The translations under genes and the position numbers were made by a program. Below the pieces are notes generated by a model. That model did no database searches. It worked only from the letters and a program-made list of their open reading frames with translations, and had not been told where the DNA came from. Below are positions 2,718-62,045 of a stretch of DNA of 64,000 nucleotides, piece by piece; position 1 is the first letter of the stretch, and every line of letters begins with the position of its first letter. Location of the stretch: IMG/VR virus record IMGVR_UViG_2740892427_000001, one strand, 5' to 3'. The stretch comes from a virus (lineage: Duplodnaviria; Heunggongvirae; Uroviricota; Caudoviricetes).

Positions 2718-3350
2718 CTACATACTTTCTGATCTAATTGAGTTGTTCACTGCTCTGGCAATTTTCTCCCGCAATTGCTGCGTTCCGTGGTACTGAACCG
2801 CAATATCCCGCAACTCATTCACCAGTTCTCTAATCTGGTGATCTTTAAGCTCATTATTTGGGTGATGGGCAACAACTCTGGTTAATTCACCCTTGTCTTT
2901 TGCTCTTACGTATGCAGCTCTTGTGCATTCGACCCATGTATTACCGCCTACATTAACTTCGTAGATTAGGCTGGACTTATCTGTCAATTCGGAACAAATA
3001 CGGGCCGTGGTCTGGCAACTAGAGCATTCGCAGTTATCGCGGAAACCGTGATCTACCGGTCGAGAAAGAGGTTTAACTTTTTCATCCAACTTCATCACAG
3101 CATCGTGATAAGCGTTCCAGCCGTCATCTTTACCAAGTTGATAAATCTCTGAAGGCTCCATGTAGTCTATATCGCAACCTTCTTCATCTGATCTATCTGG
3201 TCGTTTCCCTGGTAATCGTTCATAAAAACGATTTCTGTCTCGACGTTCGGCTCTCAGTGCTAACGCAAGAAGTTGCTCAAGCGAGGTATTTGCACCAGCA
3301 ATAATTTCATTGAGAATATCTTCTGTGAGATCTTTCGCTACCGTGCTCAT
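2718..3350 (-). CDS. hypothetical protein with Cys cluster (CECSSC)
   Basis: 210 aa ORF, start overlaps upstream gene stop (operon); no confident family assignment. Confidence 0.5.
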   Translation of the reverse strand: MSTVAKDLTEDILNEIIAGANTSLEQLLALALRAERRDRNRFYERLPGKRPDRSDEEGCDIDYMEPSEIYQLGKDDGWNAYHDAVMKLDEKVKPLSRPVDHGFRDNCECSSCQTTARICSELTDKSSLIYEVNVGGNTWVECTRAAYVRAKDKGELTRVVAHHPNNELKDHQIRELVNELRDIAVQYHGTQQLREKIARAVNNSIRSESM

Positions 3351-7067: not shown

Positions 7068-8753
7068 TCATTTAACGCGTTTGAAAACGTATACGCTGAC
7101 TGTGATCCCTGTGTCTTCAAACTCGTTGGTAAACGACTTCCCTCTGGCATAAACGTAATTATCCATCGTCATCCAGTCCAGTATTGGCGCAGTGCCCGGC
7201 AATACTGCTACAAGACGCCCGCCGACTTTCAGATGCCCCAGCGCAGCCAGCGTGTGCTCTCTATGACGACCAAGCGAGTACGGCGGGTTCATAACGATTT
7301 TGTCGAACTGATAACCTACGTTGTCCTCAGACCACTTTATGAAGTCGCAGCAAATCGTGTTCGTATACCCTTTTCCGCGCAGGATATCAGCGAAGAGAGG
7401 TGCGATTTCTATGCAGGTAACATCTTCCAGATCGGCGTTAATATAGGCCAGAAGATCCCCACGTCCGGCTTGAGGCTCCAACAACTTCTCACCAGGCTTC
7501 AATTCAGTGGCTCTGGCAACGTACTCAGCAATCAAGCGTGGGGTAGGGTAGAACTGGTGTGATTTTGTATCCGGTATTAAACCGGTAGCCACAATCGTAT
7601 TTAGCGTATGGCCGATCTCATACGGGAACTGCCAGTGCTTTTTCTCCTGCACGCCGCCAATGAAGCTCAGTGTGCGCTCAAGCTCTTCCACCTGCGACTT
7701 CTGGAGAGCTGAATCAGAGAAGTACCATACGCCTTTGTCTTTGCTAAATCGCCCGTCACGAAGCGCAGTGCGAACCGGCACGGAGATCGTCTTCTGGATT
7801 AACCCGAACTGCTTTGGTGCCCGTGTTTTTGGCGCAGTTCGGCATGGCGCGGGAATTGCAGCAGGCATACTGTAAGCCAGCACCTCATTCAACTTCCAGG
7901 CCACGTCAGGATGTATTTCAAAGTGAACGTTGCCGTTCTTGAACATCTTCACGCGCATCAGATTTCCATCGACGTTCATCCAGTCACCGGTCTGGCAGTC
8001 GTTTGCCCGATACGCAGCTGATAGCACCTCAGCAGTGCGGTTGATGGTAATAAATTCTTTGTGCGCGAAGAAATGAAGCAAGACACGCAGATCGTCGATA
8101 TAGTCCTCTTTGCGATAGTTCACACTAACGCTGTCCCGCCAGAAATCAGAAATGCAGTCAGCGATTATCAGACGTTCGCTGAAACCGTTTGTCTTATTTG
8201 TCTTGTGCGCAGGACTCAGCGCCTTAAACAAGCCATACACGCGCTCAGAGAGATATTTGTGCCTGTCATTCAGCAAATTAAGCATCGTGGGTATGACCGT
8301 TTCTGCTTTGAACTCCGGTACACCAACGAACTCTTTAACCTTCATCTGGTAGCCGGTTCTGTCAGTTTTGATGACTTCCTGTTTGCCCTCTATAAACTGC
8401 TCGCGCCACTCATCTCGACGGGAAGCTGGCATGATCAGCAAAACGTTAGTCATGTCCGTGACCTTCCTCCAGTACTCGGCCCAAATATTCTGTTTCACCC
8501 ATTCCAGATCGACTTTATCCAACCAACCTCGATTTAAACGCGAGCGATCTTCATCTGGTCGATGGTTTAGTCTCAGCAGGCGATTAATCATGTTGTGGCG
8601 TTCGTCGCCATAAACGAAGTCGTGTACCTGATACATGAAGGCGATCTCTTTCTCGCACTCGGCCACAATTTCGTGGATGACGTTCATTTCCTGCCGATAG
8701 TCGATAGCAGTGTTTGAGTTGGCATCGTCGATGATGGAAAGGGCTGTATTCAT
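7068..8753 (-). CDS. DNA N6-adenine methyltransferase fused to a large uncharacterized N-terminal domain
   Basis: C-terminal third carries FYPTP, EPQAGRGDL (AdoMet-binding) and NPPY motifs; N-terminal ~380 aa unassigned. Confidence 0.65.
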   Translation of the reverse strand: MNTALSIIDDANSNTAIDYRQEMNVIHEIVAECEKEIAFMYQVHDFVYGDERHNMINRLLRLNHRPDEDRSRLNRGWLDKVDLEWVKQNIWAEYWRKVTDMTNVLLIMPASRRDEWREQFIEGKQEVIKTDRTGYQMKVKEFVGVPEFKAETVIPTMLNLLNDRHKYLSERVYGLFKALSPAHKTNKTNGFSERLIIADCISDFWRDSVSVNYRKEDYIDDLRVLLHFFAHKEFITINRTAEVLSAAYRANDCQTGDWMNVDGNLMRVKMFKNGNVHFEIHPDVAWKLNEVLAYSMPAAIPAPCRTAPKTRAPKQFGLIQKTISVPVRTALRDGRFSKDKGVWYFSDSALQKSQVEELERTLSFIGGVQEKKHWQFPYEIGHTLNTIVATGLIPDTKSHQFYPTPRLIAEYVARATELKPGEKLLEPQAGRGDLLAYINADLEDVTCIEIAPLFADILRGKGYTNTICCDFIKWSEDNVGYQFDKIVMNPPYSLGRHREHTLAALGHLKVGGRLVAVLPGTAPILDWMTMDNYVYARGKSFTNEFEDTGITVSVYVFKRVK

Positions 8754-8856
8754 AATTGCACCATTAAGAAGTGATTTGTTTAATGGTGCAATTATTTCAA
8801 AAATGAAAAGGTACTAAATAGAAATAAACAGGCAATCCTTCAAATAAAGGCATTGG

Positions 8857-9471
8857 CTAATCATACTTGGAGGTATTTATCACCAGAATTTTGTTTGTAT
8901 AAATCTTCTTAATATCCCATGTGACATTACCGGAATACCATTGACCGTTATATACTTGGTTTCCAGTTGCACCTGTCATTGTTACATAGACAGGTCTGTC
9001 GTAATCGGTTCGTCTATAGTTATATACCCCAACCATAGCAGGCATTACCGCACATGGATACCCCATATCTATTGTAAATTGAGGGTCAGAAATAGTGATA
9101 AGTTTCGCATCAAGGGGCATCATCTCACCGTGATACACCATTGCGCCTGCGCTGTTATACATGGCAATGCCATAGCCAGAATGTGGTAACACCATATCAG
9201 AAAAAGCATAAACTATTATTGTTCCGGGGCTACCATTTACCTGATGCAATCTGAGAGCATTGTATCCGTTACTATGCTCATGAATAAACATCATGTTCGC
9301 CTTATTACTGCTTTTTATGAAGAAAAAGCATGATTTGTTTGATGGGATTGATGTTTGAAAAACAGAACCTTTAGATGCAGACATTGTCCCTTTATTAATC
9401 AGATTTTGCGGAGTAAATTCTGGACTCATCCACAAACTTCCATCTGATTGAGTAATTGACATCCCGAACAT
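8857..9471 (-). CDS. hypothetical Tyr/Gly/Asn-rich protein in AT-rich island
   Basis: ORF in track extends to 9528; ATG at 9471 lies 2 nt after the stop of the upstream gene (TAATTATG), so two tandem genes rather than a frameshift. Confidence 0.4.
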   Translation of the reverse strand: MFGMSITQSDGSLWMSPEFTPQNLINKGTMSASKGSVFQTSIPSNKSCFFFIKSSNKANMMFIHEHSNGYNALRLHQVNGSPGTIIVYAFSDMVLPHSGYGIAMYNSAGAMVYHGEMMPLDAKLITISDPQFTIDMGYPCAVMPAMVGVYNYRRTDYDRPVYVTMTGATGNQVYNGQWYSGNVTWDIKKIYTNKILVINTSKYD

Positions 9472-9473
9472 AA

Positions 9474-9755
9474 TTATCCCCAGTATGTGTATATGTAAGA
9501 ACCAAGCCCCGTATATAAATTTGACCAACTAACCGTATTTCCATTAATAGTAACATTTGGAACAGGTAAATTGATGTAGTTGTCGTTGTTAAGAGGCATT
9601 AATGACCACACGGCATGTAGTGATTTACCCGGTGGCGGATTAGAGTACGTCTTAGAGCCTGATGACGCCGTAAATCGATCAAGAAAAAAAATAGGTGTAA
9701 GGAAGCCAGTAACGTTAATTCCTTTATTGTTGTAAATCCCTGTACCGTATGCCAT
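9474..9755 (-). CDS. hypothetical protein in AT-rich island
   Basis: 93 aa ORF; locally low GC versus flanks. Confidence 0.4.
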   Translation of the reverse strand: MAYGTGIYNNKGINVTGFLTPIFFLDRFTASSGSKTYSNPPPGKSLHAVWSLMPLNNDNYINLPVPNVTINGNTVSWSNLYTGLGSYIYTYWG

Positions 9756-9809
9756 TTTTCACCCTTGTTTTTATCAACACAATATGGCCGATCATGCGGC
9801 CATATCAGA

Positions 9810-10379
9810 TCAATTAGAGCTTTGAAAGACTTTGTGTGGTTGTGTTGCGAGGTTATGTCGATGGCTTAACTCACGCATCATGTCTTCAAGGCGACTCTTT
9901 GTGTCGTCGAGTTGGTCGGCCATTGCTCCCAAAAGCTGACGAACGGCCATCGGATCATCGCTGTTTAGTGATGGCATTTTATAACCCGCCTGAGAAGACA
10001 TAAGATTGAACGCAGACATCAACATCGTTAGAGAGGATTTAAGCCCAGCAATTTCACGATCTTTGCTGGCAATAATCGCCTCACTCTTGTTAGTGTCATC
10101 AGTTCGTTGAGTCTCGCTCACCATATCCAAAGTCGCCTGCAACTTATCAGCGCGCTCTTTTTCAGCAAGATAATGAACACCGAAATGATGTGCTAAAGCT
10201 ACAACCTGAGTTGGCTCTTCAAAGGTGGACTCAAAATTAAGTGCTGTAACCACTCTCTCAAATATGGAAACGTCTTCTATTCCTCGAAGAATGGCTAACA
10301 TTTTGACCAGTTCATTAGCATCCATTTCTTCGAATAAGGCGTTTTGTTCATCAGCTATCGCTTTGCATTTCTTGCACAT
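9810..10379 (-). CDS. hypothetical protein
   Basis: 189 aa ORF; conserved leader motif ttaaacaagttgttttc 16 bp upstream. Confidence 0.5.
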   Translation of the reverse strand: MCKKCKAIADEQNALFEEMDANELVKMLAILRGIEDVSIFERVVTALNFESTFEEPTQVVALAHHFGVHYLAEKERADKLQATLDMVSETQRTDDTNKSEAIIASKDREIAGLKSSLTMLMSAFNLMSSQAGYKMPSLNSDDPMAVRQLLGAMADQLDDTKSRLEDMMRELSHRHNLATQPHKVFQSSN

Positions 10380-14219: not shown

Positions 14220-14402
14220 CTTCTTTCTCGATAGGTAAGTGATTACCTATTTTTGCATTTGATTTTATGTCTGGCAATCAAATAAAACGCGCCAGAAATG
14301 CAAACGAGAAGCTCTCTGGCGCGTTTTTGTGGTGCTGGGTATGTGATTGGCTTACCCAGCACTATAAAGCTCTCTATGGGCTTTATTTTCAGTAGGGGAA
14401 CG

Positions 14403-15212
14403 TCATCCAATAGTGTACTCCGCGACAAACTTCTTAACGATCGGTGATTCTTCGTTCAATGTTAGATTTCCACCGTCTCTAACGGCAATTCCTGTCGCTG
14501 GAAATACAGCCATCATTTGCCCAGCCTGAGTTGACGCAGTGTTAAGCGGATACGGTTTTTCTGGATTGCTCATTAAAGCAATCTTAATACTATTACTTGT
14601 AGCCTTCTTTTCTGTGAGAAGGTGTCTCATGGAAATTACCGTGTAAACACTAATATCTGGACCTCCGCTAAACCAATTAAGAAGGTTTAATATCTTATCC
14701 TTTGCTTTGACAGGCGCGTTATCGTAAGCGTCTAAGAAAATATCTTTTTCTAAGCCCGCTTTATTGAAAAACGAATCATCTTTATCACTTAAAGTAAAAC
14801 GAGGACCTCTTGCAGTACGAGCTTTTTTATTTGTATTGCTATCATTTGACTGTTGAACTTTTAATTCATCATTAACCTCAACACACTCTTCAACCTCAAT
14901 AAATCCCAATTGTTCTGGCTCGTTTTCGGCAGATTCAACACTTTCAGCGTTAATTACGTTTATAGGCTCATGCGCTAACTCCAACTCATTTAAAGCAGAG
15001 CTGAAATCACCTGCTTTTTCTTCATTGAACAGTTCTTCGGCAACATCATCAGAACTCATGGCTACGCCAGCATCGAGGCCGAGCAGCAGATCGTCAATAT
15101 CATCAGTATTTTCAACCTGTGCGGCTTTCTTTACTGGTTCATCAAGTGATTGCAACATGGCTGTCAGCTCGTCCAGATCATCATTTGTCATTACATTTTC
15201 AACCGAACTCAT
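14403..15212 (-). CDS. acidic hypothetical protein
   Basis: 269 aa, D/E-rich N-terminal half. Confidence 0.5.
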   Translation of the reverse strand: MSSVENVMTNDDLDELTAMLQSLDEPVKKAAQVENTDDIDDLLLGLDAGVAMSSDDVAEELFNEEKAGDFSSALNELELAHEPINVINAESVESAENEPEQLGFIEVEECVEVNDELKVQQSNDSNTNKKARTARGPRFTLSDKDDSFFNKAGLEKDIFLDAYDNAPVKAKDKILNLLNWFSGGPDISVYTVISMRHLLTEKKATSNSIKIALMSNPEKPYPLNTASTQAGQMMAVFPATGIAVRDGGNLTLNEESPIVKKFVAEYTIG

Positions 15213-15370
15213 GTAAGTCTCCTTCTGTTTGGTTACATTTGCGTTTCGATGGCTACATTTTGACTAAACCTATCAGGCGGAAAAGTATTAAATACAGGCA
15301 GGAAATGATTGAAAGGCGACTGTTCTTTAAAAGAAAGCCTACTTTAAACTTTTTAAAGTAGGCTTTTGTT

Positions 15371-15925
15371 TTACACAATTTCAGAGGGTAATTTAAAAAA
15401 TCCGTACTTATTACGTGCCTTAAAGAAGCATTGCATCATTAAGTTTGTGTCATATAAGGCACTATGTGCTTTGGCATGATCGTATATAAAGCCAAGAGAG
15501 AAGGCCAACTCTTCAAGGCGGGGACGTTTACCGTCTTCTGTGGCCCACAGGGAAAATATAGTGTCAATCAATGGGATGTCTGGAAGCGAAAAACCGTAAC
15601 TTTTCAGCTCATGCCTAATAAACGGAATATCGAACGCTTCGCCGTTGTGGGCTATCCAAATATCGGAAGAAGAGAGATACGAAGCGACAGATGAAGCGTG
15701 ATCGGCTAGTAACGGCTCGGCGGCTAAATCTTCAAGACTGATGCCGTGTACCGCTTGCGCTTTCGGATCGATACTGCGACGCGGGTTGAACCGCATTACA
15801 AAACTATCAACCATTGTCTGTGTCTCCAGTTCATAGCGGGTAATTGCGATTTCAATAATTTTATGACCAGCAAGGAAATCCAGTCCCGTAGACTCGATAT
15901 CGATGCCTGCAACAATCGTTGTCAT
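15371..15925 (-). CDS. DnaQ-like 3'-5' proofreading exonuclease (DEDD family)
   Basis: Exo I motif GIDIESTGL near N-terminus; 184 aa. Confidence 0.7.
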   Translation of the reverse strand: MTTIVAGIDIESTGLDFLAGHKIIEIAITRYELETQTMVDSFVMRFNPRRSIDPKAQAVHGISLEDLAAEPLLADHASSVASYLSSSDIWIAHNGEAFDIPFIRHELKSYGFSLPDIPLIDTIFSLWATEDGKRPRLEELAFSLGFIYDHAKAHSALYDTNLMMQCFFKARNKYGFFKLPSEIV

Positions 15926-34168: not shown

Positions 34169-34999
34169 TTATTTCACTGTAATGAAAGGAGTGTTAGCCC
34201 CTTGAGTCATGTACTGCGGTAACTGGCCATTCCATTTATTGATGGCTTCCAGTTCCATAACGTTCGGGTTTTGACGCAGAGCTTCACCGCGCAGACGAAT
34301 GGCGTCTGCTTCTGCTTGCGCACGAGCACGGATAGCATCAGCTTCACCATTAGCCTGTTCACGTAGCATATTCGCCTCAGCTTTACGCTGTTCGACTTCC
34401 TGCTGACGTTGCAGAGTACGCTGGTTAGCCGTTACTTTGGCGTTAATAGATTCAATGACGGTTTTTGGGTAATCAGGCTTTCCAACCCATGACAGGCTCA
34501 GTACCTCAATACCAACCGGAGACATCTCTTTCTGAATATCTTTCAGTGCGTTGTCCAGCAATTGTGCCTTACCACCGTCGATAAATGAGTCAGTGGTCAT
34601 ACGGCTGGCCAAACGGTTTAGAGAGTCGGCAATTTTCTGACGCAGATCTGATTCGGTGATATCGTCTACGCCTTTGCGATAGGTCTGGAACACCGTCGTT
34701 ACCTTGTCACGATTAACCAGATACGCAACGCCAATTTTGTGACCAATAGCAGTACCGTCACTCATCTGGAATGTGAACGGTTCGTCGTAGGTCTTCATTT
34801 GTTTGAAGGTCGGGAATACGTAAAGTTCGGTGTTAAGACCTGTCCATTGGCGACCAACGCCAACCACTTCACCAATCCCTTTGTCTTCACCTAATTTGTT
34901 TACTTTGATGCCAACGTATCCAGGCTCCACGCGATCACAGCCAGTAAGACCCATTGTGCAAATAGCCGCCAGAGCAACTGCAAGTAAACCTTTCTTCAT
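34169..34999 (-). CDS. SPFH/band-7 domain lipoprotein
   Basis: Lipobox LTGC; SPFH-like core; Ala/Glu-rich coiled-coil C-terminus. Confidence 0.55.
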   Translation of the reverse strand: MKKGLLAVALAAICTMGLTGCDRVEPGYVGIKVNKLGEDKGIGEVVGVGRQWTGLNTELYVFPTFKQMKTYDEPFTFQMSDGTAIGHKIGVAYLVNRDKVTTVFQTYRKGVDDITESDLRQKIADSLNRLASRMTTDSFIDGGKAQLLDNALKDIQKEMSPVGIEVLSLSWVGKPDYPKTVIESINAKVTANQRTLQRQQEVEQRKAEANMLREQANGEADAIRARAQAEADAIRLRGEALRQNPNVMELEAINKWNGQLPQYMTQGANTPFITVK

Positions 35000-35295: not shown

Positions 35296-37635
35296 TTACT
35301 CTTCTACTGACTCGGTGGGGTTGTCTTTTGCTCTTCGGTCGTCGATTGCCTGCAAAGCCGCAATGATTTCAGCCAGTGGCTTCTCCCGATACATCTCGAC
35401 GATCTGCGATTTGGTGTATTTCTTGTCACCAATTTCAACTCGCCCGCTGGCGTTCTTTGGCAGGTATCCTTCTTCCAGCATGTACTCGACGAGCGATTCG
35501 ATAACGTCGAGGCCACGAGTAGGATCGAAGTAGAATTTCCAGGTGCATTTGCCATACGGTGGTGCAACTTTGTTTTTGATGCATTCTGCGCCTACGTCCT
35601 GGCCGATCTTCTCTTTACCATCCTTCATCACCGATGCACCAAGACGGATACGTACAGAAGCGTAGAACTTCGGTGAATCGCCGCCTGGTGACGTAGTAGG
35701 GTCGCCAAACATTACACCGATTTTTGTGCGAACCTGATTCAAGAAGATGATGCAGGCGTTGTATTTGCGTGCCCACAAAGCCAGAGTAGGGAAGTTCGCA
35801 CTCGTCGCACGAGCCAGTGCCGTATTGTCGTTCATGTTTAGCTGATCTTTGTCTTTGGCAGTGCCTTCAGCCATCTTTTCGAACTTCTCGGCTTTGGAGT
35901 TCGGAACCATAGACGCAAGAGAGTCAGCCACGATACAGATAGGTGCTGATTCGGGGATAAGCTCTTCATCACGAACCAATTTAAGTATTGTGCCGATCAA
36001 CTCTACAGAGTCTTCGAAGGTATCTGGCTGCTTGTATACCCACTGACCGTCATCCTCATCTGCGTTCAGGCCATTGGCTACAGCCAGGCCAACGTCAAAA
36101 CTGTTTTCATGATCGAGGAATACCGCCAGACCATCTTGTTTTTGAGCGGAGATCATCGCTGCTGTTGCAAGGAATGTGTTGTGGCTGATAATCCCGTTAG
36201 ACCAGAAAGAGTGTGTTTCCGGCATCGCTACGTCGAACGTTGGTGCTTCACCTTCCTCAATAGCCACGACTTCGTCGTAGAACAAGTTAGAGCCAATTAC
36301 CGCTGCCAGTTGTGCAAACAGATGCTCGTTAAAACGATTCTTTCTGCCAATGAAGGAGACATAGATTTCTCGCAGTTTGTCTATTCCGACACGATCGCCG
36401 CGGCCAATAACGTGGTCTACCAGAGCGTAGTCTTCACGGGTGGTCTTGGTGAGCGACTCGTAGAGTGATTTCACTAAGCCGCTGATGTGCGGAACATAGC
36501 CTGAGTAAGTGCGGTCAAAACCAATGTCCCGTTTGGTTGCCACTGATAAACGTGCCGGAGATTCGAAACCAATCGTTGACAGAAAAAGGTCGTAATTAGA
36601 GCCACTGAATGACAGCCGGTAATATGTATTTTCATAACCCGCGACGTGTTTTTCAGAGATAGTTGACGTAATCCCCAGATTCAGGAGCATGAGGCGAATT
36701 TGCTGTAGCAGCAGCCCACTCGCGCTCACAACCTCAATGCAGCGACCATCATTGACGTGGCATTCCAGCTCAAAGTAGCCGCGAAGGAATGCAATTTGAG
36801 CCTCGCTATTGGCGCGACGCACACTCAACGGAACCTGCTTGCCAGCATCTTTCTCATACTCCAGACCATATTCTTTAAAAAGCAGCGAACGCACCTCTTT
36901 GCTAAACAGCACATGGTCTTCCGAGCCGTTATGTTTTCTCGTAACTGGCATCTTGTCTGATACCAGCGAAATGAGGCGGTAGTACTCATCCTTGATGAAA
37001 GGATCTGTGTTAGAAAAATTCACTGAATTTTCAGAGGCCACGTATCCGTCAGCAATTAAATAGCCCATCAGTTTTGCGATATTGGCATCCAGGTGCTGAT
37101 CGCCGAATTGATGTGTGCCAACCATTGAAGGAATCGTGTCGCCTACACTGATTTTTTCAGCATGTCGCCAGACGACATTACCTAAGTCGTCAACCACACG
37201 GATTGGGTGACGGAACGTAGCCTCGATATAACCGCCTGATGCCAGCTTAATACGCTTGAATTTGCGACGGTTGTTCCATGTCAGGTGTGAGGTCTTCTCT
37301 ATCACGCCATTTTCATTGATGAGTCCAACGTTATGCTCTACATCGCGAGTAGTGCATGTCGCTTTGTACCCTTCAATCTCAAACAACTCTTTCACTGTTA
37401 CCATTCCACGCTCCGTCAGCAGCATGGTGTCTGCGGTAACACATTTCCCCGCGCTTGGTGGCCCGAATACTTCGACGATACGACCACATGGGAAGCCGCC
37501 ATCGTAACGACCAGAAATAGCTTTGTTTAACGGTGGAAAGCCTGTATCAATCCAATGAGTTACTTTCTGAATTTCGTCGTTGCTACCGATTTTCTTTTTC
37601 AGAGCAAGTGCCAGTGCGGATTTTCCTTTTGCCAT
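35296..37635 (-). CDS. recA: RecA recombinase containing an in-frame intein
   Basis: Exteins read ...RIVEVFGPPSAGK / TFLATAAM...LNQVRTKIGVMFGDPTTSPGGDSPKFYASVRIRLG (RecA core); 779 aa total versus ~357 aa extein. Confidence 0.85.
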   Translation of the reverse strand: MAKGKSALALALKKKIGSNDEIQKVTHWIDTGFPPLNKAISGRYDGGFPCGRIVEVFGPPSAGKCVTADTMLLTERGMVTVKELFEIEGYKATCTTRDVEHNVGLINENGVIEKTSHLTWNNRRKFKRIKLASGGYIEATFRHPIRVVDDLGNVVWRHAEKISVGDTIPSMVGTHQFGDQHLDANIAKLMGYLIADGYVASENSVNFSNTDPFIKDEYYRLISLVSDKMPVTRKHNGSEDHVLFSKEVRSLLFKEYGLEYEKDAGKQVPLSVRRANSEAQIAFLRGYFELECHVNDGRCIEVVSASGLLLQQIRLMLLNLGITSTISEKHVAGYENTYYRLSFSGSNYDLFLSTIGFESPARLSVATKRDIGFDRTYSGYVPHISGLVKSLYESLTKTTREDYALVDHVIGRGDRVGIDKLREIYVSFIGRKNRFNEHLFAQLAAVIGSNLFYDEVVAIEEGEAPTFDVAMPETHSFWSNGIISHNTFLATAAMISAQKQDGLAVFLDHENSFDVGLAVANGLNADEDDGQWVYKQPDTFEDSVELIGTILKLVRDEELIPESAPICIVADSLASMVPNSKAEKFEKMAEGTAKDKDQLNMNDNTALARATSANFPTLALWARKYNACIIFLNQVRTKIGVMFGDPTTSPGGDSPKFYASVRIRLGASVMKDGKEKIGQDVGAECIKNKVAPPYGKCTWKFYFDPTRGLDVIESLVEYMLEEGYLPKNASGRVEIGDKKYTKSQIVEMYREKPLAEIIAALQAIDDRRAKDNPTESVEE
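36178..37443 (-). mobile_element. intein (422 aa) with LAGLIDADG homing-endonuclease motifs, inserted in the RecA P-loop
   Basis: Begins with Cys directly after GK of Walker A, ends with HN followed by Thr; internal LMGYLIADGYV and LRGYFELECHV blocks. Confidence 0.8.
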
Positions 37636-37637
37636 GA

Positions 37638-37910
37638 TCAGGCTCCTTTTGTTTCGTTGATTCGTTTTAAAGCGGCGGATTCGTCGAATACAATCGCATC
37701 GTGGTTAAGGAGTCTGGATACACGAGCGAGGATTTTTACGACCTGCTCGCTGACTAATCCAAACTCGCGATCTGTCGCTTTCATTCCGGCAGCGCCCAGA
37801 ATTGACGGCAGTGCGATGACAGCGTACTCACCGTGATAAAAGACAATCTCTTTTGCCAGTTGGGTAGGGGTGGTTGTAGCGCCATTAATAATCGATTTAA
37901 GCATTAGCAA
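37638..37910 (-). CDS. small hypothetical protein
   Basis: 90 aa ORF. Confidence 0.4.
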   Translation of the reverse strand: MLMLKSIINGATTTPTQLAKEIVFYHGEYAVIALPSILGAAGMKATDREFGLVSEQVVKILARVSRLLNHDAIVFDESAALKRINETKGA

Positions 37911-38899
37911 TACCTTTCGAATGGAAGAACAAACACTTCAAGGTCTTCAAGGAACGAACGGAAATTCAGCTCGTAGCACAGTTGCTCGAATGCTTTCACG
38001 TCACGATTGCCTTTGATTGTTTCGATTTCGGTAGGCGGAAACTTCGTCTCAATCAGGTTCATTAGCGTGATGTTTCTCTTGAACGCTTCGAGCATTCGAC
38101 AGCCTGTTTTCTCGTTGAAGGCATTCTTCGCTAGTTTGTTGAAGGCGGTCTTATGGCGTCCTTTGTCAACCACGATTGAGCCGTCGTTGATGCCGCGTAC
38201 CATCGTTGCGACACTTCCCCATTCATGCAGCAGCTCTTTCGCACCGCCAGCACCAATGCCACCAACACCGCTAATGTTGTCCGATTTATCGCCTTGTAAT
38301 GCTTTTGCTTCCAAAAATGCGCGAGGCGTGGCGAATCCTGTCAGCTCCGCAAATTGCTCAAAATTAACCTGCTTGTTTTTGGCGTCTTCACGCAGGCTTA
38401 CCCAGCTTACGTTTTCACGAACTAACTGAAGCCAGTCGCTATCGCCTGTTAACAGATAGATGTGTTCAACGGTTGGCTGCGGTGCCATGCGGGATACCAG
38501 CAGCCCGGCCAGATCATCCGCTTCTGCATCTTTTGCAATGAGTTGGGTAACTCCAAGCGCGGTCATCATTTTGAGGATGTATGGCTTCTGGATAGCAAAG
38601 CCTTCCTTCATCTTTTTCATATCAGGATCGTCGTCGCGATTTGCTTTGTAGTCCGGGTAAAAGTCGCGACGCTTGTCACTAAATCCATCCCAAAGAATCA
38701 TAGGTCGGGCATGGAGGATGGAGGCATAACGACGGACGTTCTTAACAAAGCCGAAAGCAGCCTGTACTTCCATTTCGCCGTTGTGCAATTTGTCAGATTG
38801 TTGGTGGTAATAACCCAGGCTATTGCCATCTACGAAGAGATAATTCACCGGTACATTCCTTCCAAAAAGTAAGGCGTCCGTAGAGGCCTTACTGGTCAC
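37904..38899 (-). CDS. 5'-3' exonuclease / flap endonuclease
   Basis: FVDGNSLGY N-terminal block and H3TH-like GDKSDNISGVGGIG. Confidence 0.7.
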   Translation of the reverse strand: MTSKASTDALLFGRNVPVNYLFVDGNSLGYYHQQSDKLHNGEMEVQAAFGFVKNVRRYASILHARPMILWDGFSDKRRDFYPDYKANRDDDPDMKKMKEGFAIQKPYILKMMTALGVTQLIAKDAEADDLAGLLVSRMAPQPTVEHIYLLTGDSDWLQLVRENVSWVSLREDAKNKQVNFEQFAELTGFATPRAFLEAKALQGDKSDNISGVGGIGAGGAKELLHEWGSVATMVRGINDGSIVVDKGRHKTAFNKLAKNAFNEKTGCRMLEAFKRNITLMNLIETKFPPTEIETIKGNRDVKAFEQLCYELNFRSFLEDLEVFVLPFERYC

Positions 38900-61367: not shown

Positions 61368-62045
61368 ATGAAGGCGAATAAGTCAGCGGCACTTTTAGTT
61401 TTATTATTAGCCGGTTGCGCGCAACAAAGTAACCCACAACAAAATGCCACTGTAAAACCAATCCTAACCCAAGAAATATTGCCTTCCTCTAACGTAGAGT
61501 CAAAGGCGAAAATGGGTGACCTTGTCGTTTATAACACGTTTGTGTCCACGTTAAAAACCGACATGGTCACTCTTGGTAACGCTTCTGGTTCGATGTCTGA
61601 GATTAAAGCGGGCAACTACTGCCACGTTGGTGGTGGGGTCTACCGGAACTTTGAAGACTCAAAAGCTGTGGGCCTGAAGGCCATTACAGGGCAGGTAGTG
61701 AGCCACACTGATAACGTCAAGTATGACAAGGTCAAAAACACTATATCTCCTCCAAACACCACGACGTTCGACGCCTCCGAAATATCCATAAAATTCGCAC
61801 AAAATGTCCCCTGCCATGTAGAGAAAAAGATTGTTCAGTCTATTTCTTATAATGGTAAAAGCGGCGAAGAACTTAAATTTATTTATTCCGAAAGCTACCC
61901 ATATTTAGATGAAACTAAGACTGAGTTTTCAGTGCCTCTTTCCGATGCAAAAACCAAAGTCGAATATAAAAACCTGGCATTCAAGGTTATTGAAATGGAG
62001 GGTACTACAATCCGCTACTATGTATTACCATCTGGCAATAAATAA
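61368..62045 (+). CDS. lipoprotein (plus-strand cassette)
   Basis: Signal peptide with lipobox LAGC; convergent with flanking operons. Confidence 0.6.
   Translation: MKANKSAALLVLLLAGCAQQSNPQQNATVKPILTQEILPSSNVESKAKMGDLVVYNTFVSTLKTDMVTLGNASGSMSEIKAGNYCHVGGGVYRNFEDSKAVGLKAITGQVVSHTDNVKYDKVKNTISPPNTTTFDASEISIKFAQNVPCHVEKKIVQSISYNGKSGEELKFIYSESYPYLDETKTEFSVPLSDAKTKVEYKNLAFKVIEMEGTTIRYYVLPSGNK

Follow-up and report, generated by a model that had tools for sequence, protein, structure and literature searches.

A GC-poor two-gene insertion in an SSU5-like Escherichia coli phage-plasmid encodes a probable tail-tip, host-recognition pair

Does a short island of low GC content, lying among the early and accessory-type genes of a phage-plasmid, serve the bacterial host or the plasmid state, or is it instead part of the machinery with which the phage particle recognizes its host? 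The island in question lies in a 64,000-nt stretch of Caudoviricetes DNA (IMG/VR record IMGVR_UViG_2740892427_000001; the whole stretch is referred to as the window hereafter), where positions 8760-9800 have a GC content of 37.9% vs. a window mean of 46.0% (i.e., 0.379 vs. 0.460, with an SD of 0.026 for 1041-bp windows). These positions rank in the lowest 0.1% of the 1041-bp windows, with the overall minimum beginning at about 8730. A previous, sequence-only reading had described this ~1 kb as more AT-rich than its flanks and as encoding two tandem proteins of 93 and ~204 aa that are joined by a stop-start junction and are rich in Tyr, Gly, Asn and Thr, and our analysis bears out this description. 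Specifically, orfA (9474-9755, 93 aa) and orfB (8857-9471, 204 aa) are both encoded on the minus strand, and their residue composition is dominated by N (12.9%), G (10.8%), T (9.7%), S (9.7%) and Y (8.6%) for orfA and by S (9.8%), G (8.3%), N, I and M (7.4% each), and T and Y (6.9% each) for orfB. The junction, TAATTATG as read on the minus strand (9469-9476; the letters run TGG GGA TAA TT ATG), has a 2-nt spacer that couples orfA and orfB. We take the ATG at 9471 as the start of orfB; the automatic ORF list prolongs the gene to an upstream TTG. Two plus-strand ORFs of 82 and 51 aa overlap orfA and orfB on the opposite strand.

By its sequence, the window is an SSU5-like E. coli phage-plasmid that is ~99% identical to plasmid pLF82/phage Cyrano of E. 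coli LF82. That is, the island itself is 99.5% identical to pLF82/Cyrano, the remaining window is collinear with Cyrano at 98-99% identity over the shared 21 kb, and ~110 further E. coli plasmids, called non-mobilizable, match the island at 95% identity or more. Cyrano is an SSU5-like siphovirus phage-plasmid that makes virions and is ciprofloxacin-inducible (PMC9928086). The pair sits in a long minus-strand array of early/accessory-type genes, which includes Ea22/Ead-like genes, TciA/TerB and RNase H, and, rather than being directly downstream of a J-like gene, it is flanked on the orfB side by a DUF4942 methyltransferase gene (7068-8753, minus strand) and on the orfA side by an early-region gene of 189 aa (9810-10379, minus strand). 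A promoter and terminator scan, which is a weak test, found no sigma-70-like site upstream of the two genes and called no terminator; Rfam held no family matching the region.

Both genes have full-length homologues in unrelated phages, down to ~48% identity in public data, and orfB shows a dN/dS of 0.07-0.11 (for orfA, dS is saturated); orfA and orfB are real genes under purifying selection. Alternatively, the island could be a decaying recombination remnant with no current function, for which its ectopic position and the clipping of the last five codons of the neighboring 189-aa gene by the insertion (see below) may be taken as signs. However, 112 plasmid records contain both ORFs intact and conserved at 95% or more, with no frameshifts or stops seen in the records listed, the dN/dS is far below 1, and the translational coupling has been kept; we regard decay as extremely unlikely.

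The sequence-only reading had left the two proteins without a function, and this is where our results depart from it. Profile searches against PHROGs matched orfA to phrog_557 (E=6.1e-29, residues 1-93) and orfB to phrog_425 (E=2.8e-71, residues 1-204), that is, both proteins over their full length, to families with members at the tail-tip receptor-binding locus. This pair family is known and has recently been recognised as a tail-tip family, and the pair described here is a further member of it, located unusually far from the tail genes. Pfam and NCBIfam scans of orfA and orfB gave no match, sequence-profile searches of the PDB returned nothing meaningful for either protein, and hhalign of orfA vs. 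orfB found a short common N-terminal motif only.

The database labels of the two families, 'outer membrane protein' for phrog_557 and 'membrane associated protein' for phrog_425, would suggest a rather different function, and it is important to note where these labels come from. They trace to gp32/gp31 of T1 and gp22/gp23 of N15, to which orfA/orfB show distant but significant similarity. Together with the KanT1 paper and the association of the pair with cor in FhuA-dependent phages (PMC13164509), they could be read as pointing to a membrane-associated or superinfection-exclusion function. However, the membrane labels are unsupported because neither protein has a signal peptide, a lipobox or a hydrophobic/transmembrane segment (19-residue Kyte-Doolittle scores peak at 0.94-1.10 for orfA/orfB vs. 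1.76 for a true Cor-like lipoprotein), and Matusiak et al. likewise judged the labels to be unsupported for the homologues, with low estimates of membrane affinity (PMC12309495). Further, the known exclusion proteins at such loci (Cor, Llp and Rtp45) are separate small lipoproteins, and there is no Cor-like partner in the cassette or in JenP1; when the window was scanned for lipobox sequences, no ORF for a cognate Cor/Llp-like lipoprotein was found. An exclusion function is, in our view, very improbable for this pair.

In the phage relatives, the pair always sits immediately downstream of the gene for a J-like tip or needle protein, as in JenP1 (gp20 followed by gp21/22), Bas04, TL-2011c, phi24B and T1, and the order of a small and then a large gene on the same strand, tightly coupled, is common to these five phages and the window (93 and 204 aa in the latter). 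Homologous pairs are often on the strand opposite to the J-like gene and are sometimes accompanied by a small Cor/Llp-like lipoprotein (e.g., Bas04_0025). The closest relatives outside phage-plasmids are gp22/gp21 of the Nonagvirus phages JenP1, JenP2 and BRET, at 76% and 82% amino acid identity, respectively. In JenP1, nucleotide identity of ~76-78% is confined to the two ORFs (limited to 8857-9762 of the window), the junction has the identical 2-nt spacing (gp22 ends at 8576 and gp21 starts at 8573), and the GC content is also low; however, this virulent phage encodes its pair on the opposite strand, immediately downstream of the central fibre J gene. We found no reported receptor for JenP1. 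The pair of the Stx phages, i.e., gp55/gp54 of phi24B (Traversvirus), which correspond to ORF72/ORF73 of Sp5 and to an unannotated 92-aa ORF plus gp62 of TL-2011c, is 65% (orfA) and 61% (orfB) identical over the full length (phi24B vb_24B_41/42) and shares the gene order, the tight coupling and the conserved C-terminal third of orfB, but it lies between the needle gene, which it directly follows, and lom, on the strand of the late operon, whereas the pair described here belongs to a siphovirus phage-plasmid and is separated from J by ~60 kb.

More divergent members of the family are found in phages for which a receptor has been reported. Bas04 (FritzSarasin, a Warwickvirus-type member of the Drexlerviridae; bas04_0023-0025) shares 49% identity with orfA and, over 204/204 residues of bas04_0023, 40% with orfB. 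orfB passes, vs. this BtuB-dependent phage, the rule of >30% identity and >99% coverage that defines receptor-specific families in a recent preprint (10.64898/2026.04.02.716166), but its C-terminal third is only 13-25% identical and the Bas04 locus carries a Cor-like lipoprotein that is absent from the cassette. The T1 gp32/gp31 and N15 gp22/gp23 pairs, together with those of HK022, ES18 and phi80, belong to the same PHROGs, follow J in the same small-then-large order and have in common with orfA/orfB an N-terminal M-x-YG motif and a C-terminal ...YD end, although they share 23-28% identity, have a larger protein of 229 aa, are always followed by cor and come from FhuA-dependent phages.

These loci have been linked to host recognition by several lines of work. 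In BASEL, the alleles at the pair's locus track the terminal receptor (FhuA, BtuB, LptD or YncD) (PMC8594841), and a screen of 255 phages ties the same locus, called the 'bona fide RBP locus' of small siphoviruses, to receptor specificity (preprint 10.64898/2026.04.02.716166). For the LptD allele, the role as a receptor-binding protein (RBP) has been proven by cryo-EM of the Oekolampad RBP on LptDE (PMC12685063). In phi24B, gp54 (204 aa) is present in the virion proteome at low abundance, gp55 was undetected, and the needle tip shows extra density matching a gp54-gp55 dimer; its authors propose that the pair is a BamA-binding RBP (preprint 10.64898/2026.04.10.717836). Matusiak et al. model the pair as capping the 'knife-like' end of the spike and also raise structural/chaperone-like roles (PMC12309495). 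That is, the homologous pair has been proposed in recent papers as a terminal receptor-binding module; a paper on FhuA-dependent phages regards J itself as the RBP, and a large preprint on phage-plasmid genomics leaves the cassette unmentioned. Apart from the LptD allele, the evidence for an RBP role of the family is correlative or modelled, or comes from low-abundance proteomics and low-resolution density.

Comparison of folds connects the pair to the proven case. The fold of orfB, a larger, 'hand-like' all-beta protein, is common to the LptD-binding RBPs (Oekolampad RBP, PDB 9rpt chain C, and Rtp44), whereas orfA, its small beta-sandwich partner, gave a generic beta-sandwich only. Oekolampad RBP (bas18_0025)/Rtp44 differs from the pair in that it is a single 321-aa protein with LptD as its receptor and has no detectable sequence similarity to it (hhalign vs. 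the LptD-binding RBPs gave probabilities of 0.4% and 0.2%). The match to a solved RBP ties together families that are now treated as unrelated. Of the two proteins, orfB is the candidate receptor-binding subunit. [quoted passage not shown]

The central fibre protein itself has the features expected under this reading. J lies outside the window, and the evidence was read from the near-identical Cyrano, in which the J gene occupies 17.7-22.4 kb and the pair 81.9-82.8 kb. Residues 1388-1575 of Cyrano J (1575 aa) are 37.5% identical to the C-terminus of JenP1 J (E=5e-33, ~190 aa) and 32% identical to the C-termini of T1 and Bas04 J, and a terminal ...LRV.IGRL motif is common to the J proteins of Cyrano, JenP1, T1 and Bas04 and to the Stx needle. 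Cyrano J ends in a docking-type ('knife-like') C-terminal domain that matches the pair. The displaced position of the pair is a feature of its location, not of the identity of its proteins. This matching domain at the end of Cyrano J and the either/or placement of the pair among phage-plasmids (see below) are the new observations reported here.

Presence/absence comparison provided the means to delineate the insertion. The cassette is absent from three otherwise collinear phage-plasmids, E. fergusonii pRHB19-C05_2, K. pneumoniae pDD521.1 and S. Typhi pHCM2, in which the methyltransferase gene is followed by the ~189-aa gene with ~120-140 bp between them and a GC-rich terminator hairpin within this interval. 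Homology of the window to these three empty-site plasmids ends at 8811-8831 and restarts at 9831-9871, for a cassette extent of ~8812-9830. The left junction (~8811) lies within the spacer from the orfB stop to the methyltransferase start (8754-8856, minus strand, 29% GC), and the right junction is placed at ~9826-9830 because the 189-aa gene (stop at 9810) differs from that of the empty-site relatives in its final five codons. Between the latter gene and orfA, the repeat search revealed a hairpin with a 9-bp stem, ATATGGCCG/CGGCCATAT (9782-9805, minus strand), which was not called a terminator by the simple scan and which occupies the place of the GC-rich intrinsic terminator of the empty-site relatives (sequence in one relative: GGGGGCTTTCGCCCCC). 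The same search found no target duplication, flanking direct repeats, or transposon-like or terminal-repeat ends.

These results allow us to evaluate the view, suggested earlier from composition, that the island is a recently acquired cargo cassette. Its acquisition is supported by the empty sites in collinear relatives and the homologues in unrelated phages. Its recency is not: the low GC is real, but it is a trait of the pair in every genome checked (38% vs. 43% in JenP1, 42% vs. 52% in TL-2011c, 42% vs. 44% in Bas04, and 42% vs. 46% for the tail locus of E. fergusonii), and therefore, by itself, it is no proof of recent acquisition. That is, the composition marks the family of the pair and does not date the transfer. 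The cargo part of the claim is at odds with membership in phage tail-tip families. A cargo or moron cassette, benefiting the bacterial host or the plasmid state and unrelated to the virion, would be consistent with the site among early/accessory genes adjoining a methyltransferase, with the atypical composition and the presence/absence polymorphism, and with the PHROG category of phrog_425 ('moron, auxiliary metabolic gene and host takeover'). However, the family is kept beside the tail-tip gene in strictly virulent phages (T1-like phages and Nonagvirus), a homologue (phi24B gp54) is present in the virion, and PADLOC anti-phage defence profiles gave no family at E<=0.1 for either protein. Two weak tests, namely the scan that found no promoter or terminator belonging to the cassette and the absence of the pair (CYRAN_88/89) from the LF82 table of lysogeny-expressed (moron) genes (PMC9928086), point the same way. 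The distribution of the pair relative to the tail-locus copy also argues for a phage function, and we consider the cargo explanation to be quite improbable.

Specifically, a cassette-less E. fergusonii phage-plasmid encodes, at 37165-38027 of NZ_CP057658.1, a pair of 84 and 188 aa right after its lateral tail fibre gene, and this pair is homologous to orfA (34% identity, E=4e-10) and orfB (23%, E=4e-9). At the same tail-fibre position, Cyrano has 200 bp only, and neither the window nor the portions of Cyrano that were examined yielded a second copy of the pair. By tblastn against all plasmids, the window-type orfB (at least 80% identity) was recovered from 119 records and the distant tail-locus type only from 131; overall, orfB homologues were found at 264 places in 253 plasmid records (i.e., 11 extra). 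Phage-plasmids carry the pair either at the cassette site or beside the tail fibre, almost never at both, and about four-fifths of the Escherichia/Shigella records that have a J-tip homologue contain exactly one copy. The pair is not a universal feature of SSU5-like elements, since no homologue was detectable in those of Klebsiella or in most of those of Salmonella. Since the carrier lineage is without a resident tail-locus pair, the cassette would represent its sole copy of the function.

The either/or pattern is seen against nearly identical J proteins, those of Cyrano and the E. fergusonii phage-plasmid being 97.8% identical, and it thus offers a natural experiment on the interchangeability of tail-tip modules. 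For the same reason, the C-terminal allele of J was rejected as a marker of carriers vs. non-carriers. We also considered a role of the E. fergusonii pair on the lateral fibre next to which it is encoded; this is probably not the case, because the fibre terminates in what reads as a self-processing chaperone-type sequence and probably needs no pair.

Even if the pair acts at the tail tip, it may not determine the receptor. It could be a dispensable accessory that caps or stabilises the J/needle C-terminus, or acts as a chaperone in its assembly, and so aids adsorption or virion stability, in line with the structural/chaperone-like roles raised by Matusiak et al. (PMC12309495). Among close relatives, the genes have been tested systematically once, in the Stx2 phage Sp5, for which deletion constructs were designed for the homologues ORF72 (92 aa) and ORF73 (205 aa): neither is among the nine genes essential for plaques or lysogenisation on K-12, which do include the adjacent needle ORF71, and the deletion mutants were evidently still infectious on K-12 (PMC5155283). 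Consequently, an indispensable RBP role is not established for the closest studied relatives, and the pair may be an accessory cap, at least in Sp5 on K-12. The low abundance of phi24B gp54, the failure to detect gp55 and the merely generic fold of orfA are also consistent with such a role. On the other hand, in dozens of phages the receptor used varies with the allele at the locus, the fold of orfB is that of a protein that inserts into its receptor as seen by cryo-EM, the C-terminal third of orfB is hypervariable, as expected of a specificity determinant, and very divergent pairs have been swapped against a nearly identical J. Taking these points together, we find the purely accessory role rather unlikely.

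Returning to the tail-tip, host-recognition pair as the favored reading, the following sequence of events can be envisioned. The cassette would have arrived by horizontal transfer from a pool common to Nonagvirus (JenP1) and the short-tailed Stx phages, landing between the 189-aa early-region gene and the DUF4942 methyltransferase gene and serving in place of the very divergent resident pair that sister phage-plasmids encode beside the lateral tail fibre. After induction, in the lytic cycle, it would be transcribed together with the neighboring minus-strand genes (a promoter belonging to the pair was not detected) and, as the junction shows, it is translated as a coupled pair. Late expression is an assumption in this scheme because the pair is so distant from J, within an early/replication-type array, and a promoter was not detected. 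OrfA and OrfB, soluble cytoplasmic proteins that probably form a heterocomplex, would then assemble on the C-terminal domain of trimeric J and be incorporated into the virion, as the homologues, the fusions described below and the J domain suggest, and OrfB would contact an outer-membrane protein as the terminal receptor, leading to irreversible adsorption, as suggested by the fold match and the correlations between locus and receptor.

Which receptor this might be is best approached through the C-terminal third of orfB (alignment columns 151-207), its hypervariable part, which is 13-25% identical to Bas04 and 58-93% identical to the Stx/JenP1 type. If specificity resides in this region, the receptor would be one in common with the Stx/JenP1 phages and not with the BtuB phages. 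BtuB as the receptor, and a link to the CobT/CobS-like genes of the element, were set aside as unsupported. More tentatively, and with somewhat less than even confidence, we suggest a two-step change of receptor in the E. coli lineage, in which a Stx/Nonagvirus-type pair was captured ectopically and the divergent resident pair is absent, such that the host range of elements that spread antimicrobial resistance would be set by a trans-encoded module outside the structural cluster. Under the same suggestion, one ancient fold that docks on a single conserved J-tip domain would underlie the RBP families of small siphoviruses and Stx podoviruses that are associated with FhuA, BtuB, BamA and LptD. 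Clinical Enterobacteriaceae commonly contain SSU5-like phage-plasmids, which can carry resistance genes, and the hosts that these elements can infect depend on their RBPs. If the pair is the terminal RBP, predictions of host range that consider J-adjacent genes only would overlook it in over 100 E. coli plasmids sequenced so far.

Finally, proteins of ~310-325 aa that resemble orfA-orfB fusions exist (hhalign E=3e-4 for the orfA-like N-terminus), and their existence argues for the two proteins acting together. One such fusion is encoded immediately after the end of a J-like gene and before genes for a lipobox protein, a tail fibre and a Caudo_TAP protein. In length, the fusions are similar to the single-chain Oekolampad RBP (321 aa).

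The cassette, that is, the insertion carrying orfA and orfB (the proposed tail-tip receptor-binding pair; window ~8812-9830), stands in place of a GC-rich hairpin, GGGGGCTTTCGCCCCC, that lies between the ~188-aa gene and the methyltransferase gene in the empty-site phage-plasmids (~3055-3090 of segment L007 from the E. fergusonii plasmid NZ_CP057658.1, matching the insertion site). This hairpin looks like an intrinsic terminator, and, since the cassette replaces it, read-through into orfA/orfB and the methyltransferase gene may differ between the lineages with and without the cassette. A second element, a perfect 16-bp inverted repeat with arms ATAATTGCACCATTAA ... TTAATGGTGCAATTAT (window 8752-8795), overlaps the DUF4942 methyltransferase gene at its start codon and RBS region. 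In the E. fergusonii plasmid with the empty site this repeat is kept, with both arms altered in step (G>A with C>T), and such paired changes suggest that the methyltransferase could be controlled by an operator or an RBS-sequestering hairpin.

The cassette-less SSU5-like plasmids of E. coli, E. fergusonii and Enterobacter carry a homologous, albeit very divergent, pair of 84 aa and 188 aa, flanked by the lateral tail fibre gene on one side and the holin on the other (in the E. fergusonii plasmid, L010:7166-8028, i.e., NZ_CP057658.1 37165-38027); the annotated start of the larger gene looks to be ~14 codons too short. The C-terminal ~280 aa of the lateral tail fibre are also unlike between the cassette and cassette-less lineages.

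Within the window pair, the motif [YF]-G-x-x-[IM]-x-x-x-x-G is found at the N-terminus of both orfA (residues 2-12; window 9720-9752, minus strand) and orfB (residues 2-12; 9438-9470, minus strand). The same motif recurs in the middle of orfB (residues 99-109; 9147-9179, minus strand), as it does in T1 gp31, a pattern that suggests either a duplication within the protein or a docking strand that is repeated.

Of the orfA homologues in short-tailed Stx phages, that of TL-2011c is not annotated (L003:6717-6995), and that of phi24B (L012:43826-44104) is annotated ~17 codons short (75 aa vs. 92). Consequently, the size given for gp55 (75 aa) in the phi24B preprint may be too small, which bears on the proteomic detection of this protein. 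An apparent orfA-orfB fusion of 316 aa, overlapping the stop of a J-like gene (J being the central tail fibre/tail-tip protein), was found on metagenome contig SRR26413878_407551 (L013:1-1477). After the fusion, the opposite strand encodes an 85-aa protein whose N-terminus looks like a lipobox (a candidate exclusion lipoprotein), with the genes for a fibre and a Caudo_TAP protein coming next. In the window itself, lipoprotein-type signal sequences occur on two ORFs (225 aa, 61368-62045, plus strand; 276 aa, 34169-34999, minus strand), both unlike the small Cor/Llp exclusion lipoproteins.

The element also has annotated genes for a CobT-like phosphoribosyltransferase and a cobalamin synthase (phage Cyrano 43137-46576; by collinearity, expected at window ~46-50 kb), which are of interest because orfB is distantly akin to BtuB-type RBPs; no evidence linking these genes to orfB was found. 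Finally, two further AT-rich stretches, at 14321-15711 and 1921-2981 (minimum GC of 0.384 and 0.40, respectively, in 1-kb windows), might be acquired segments as well.
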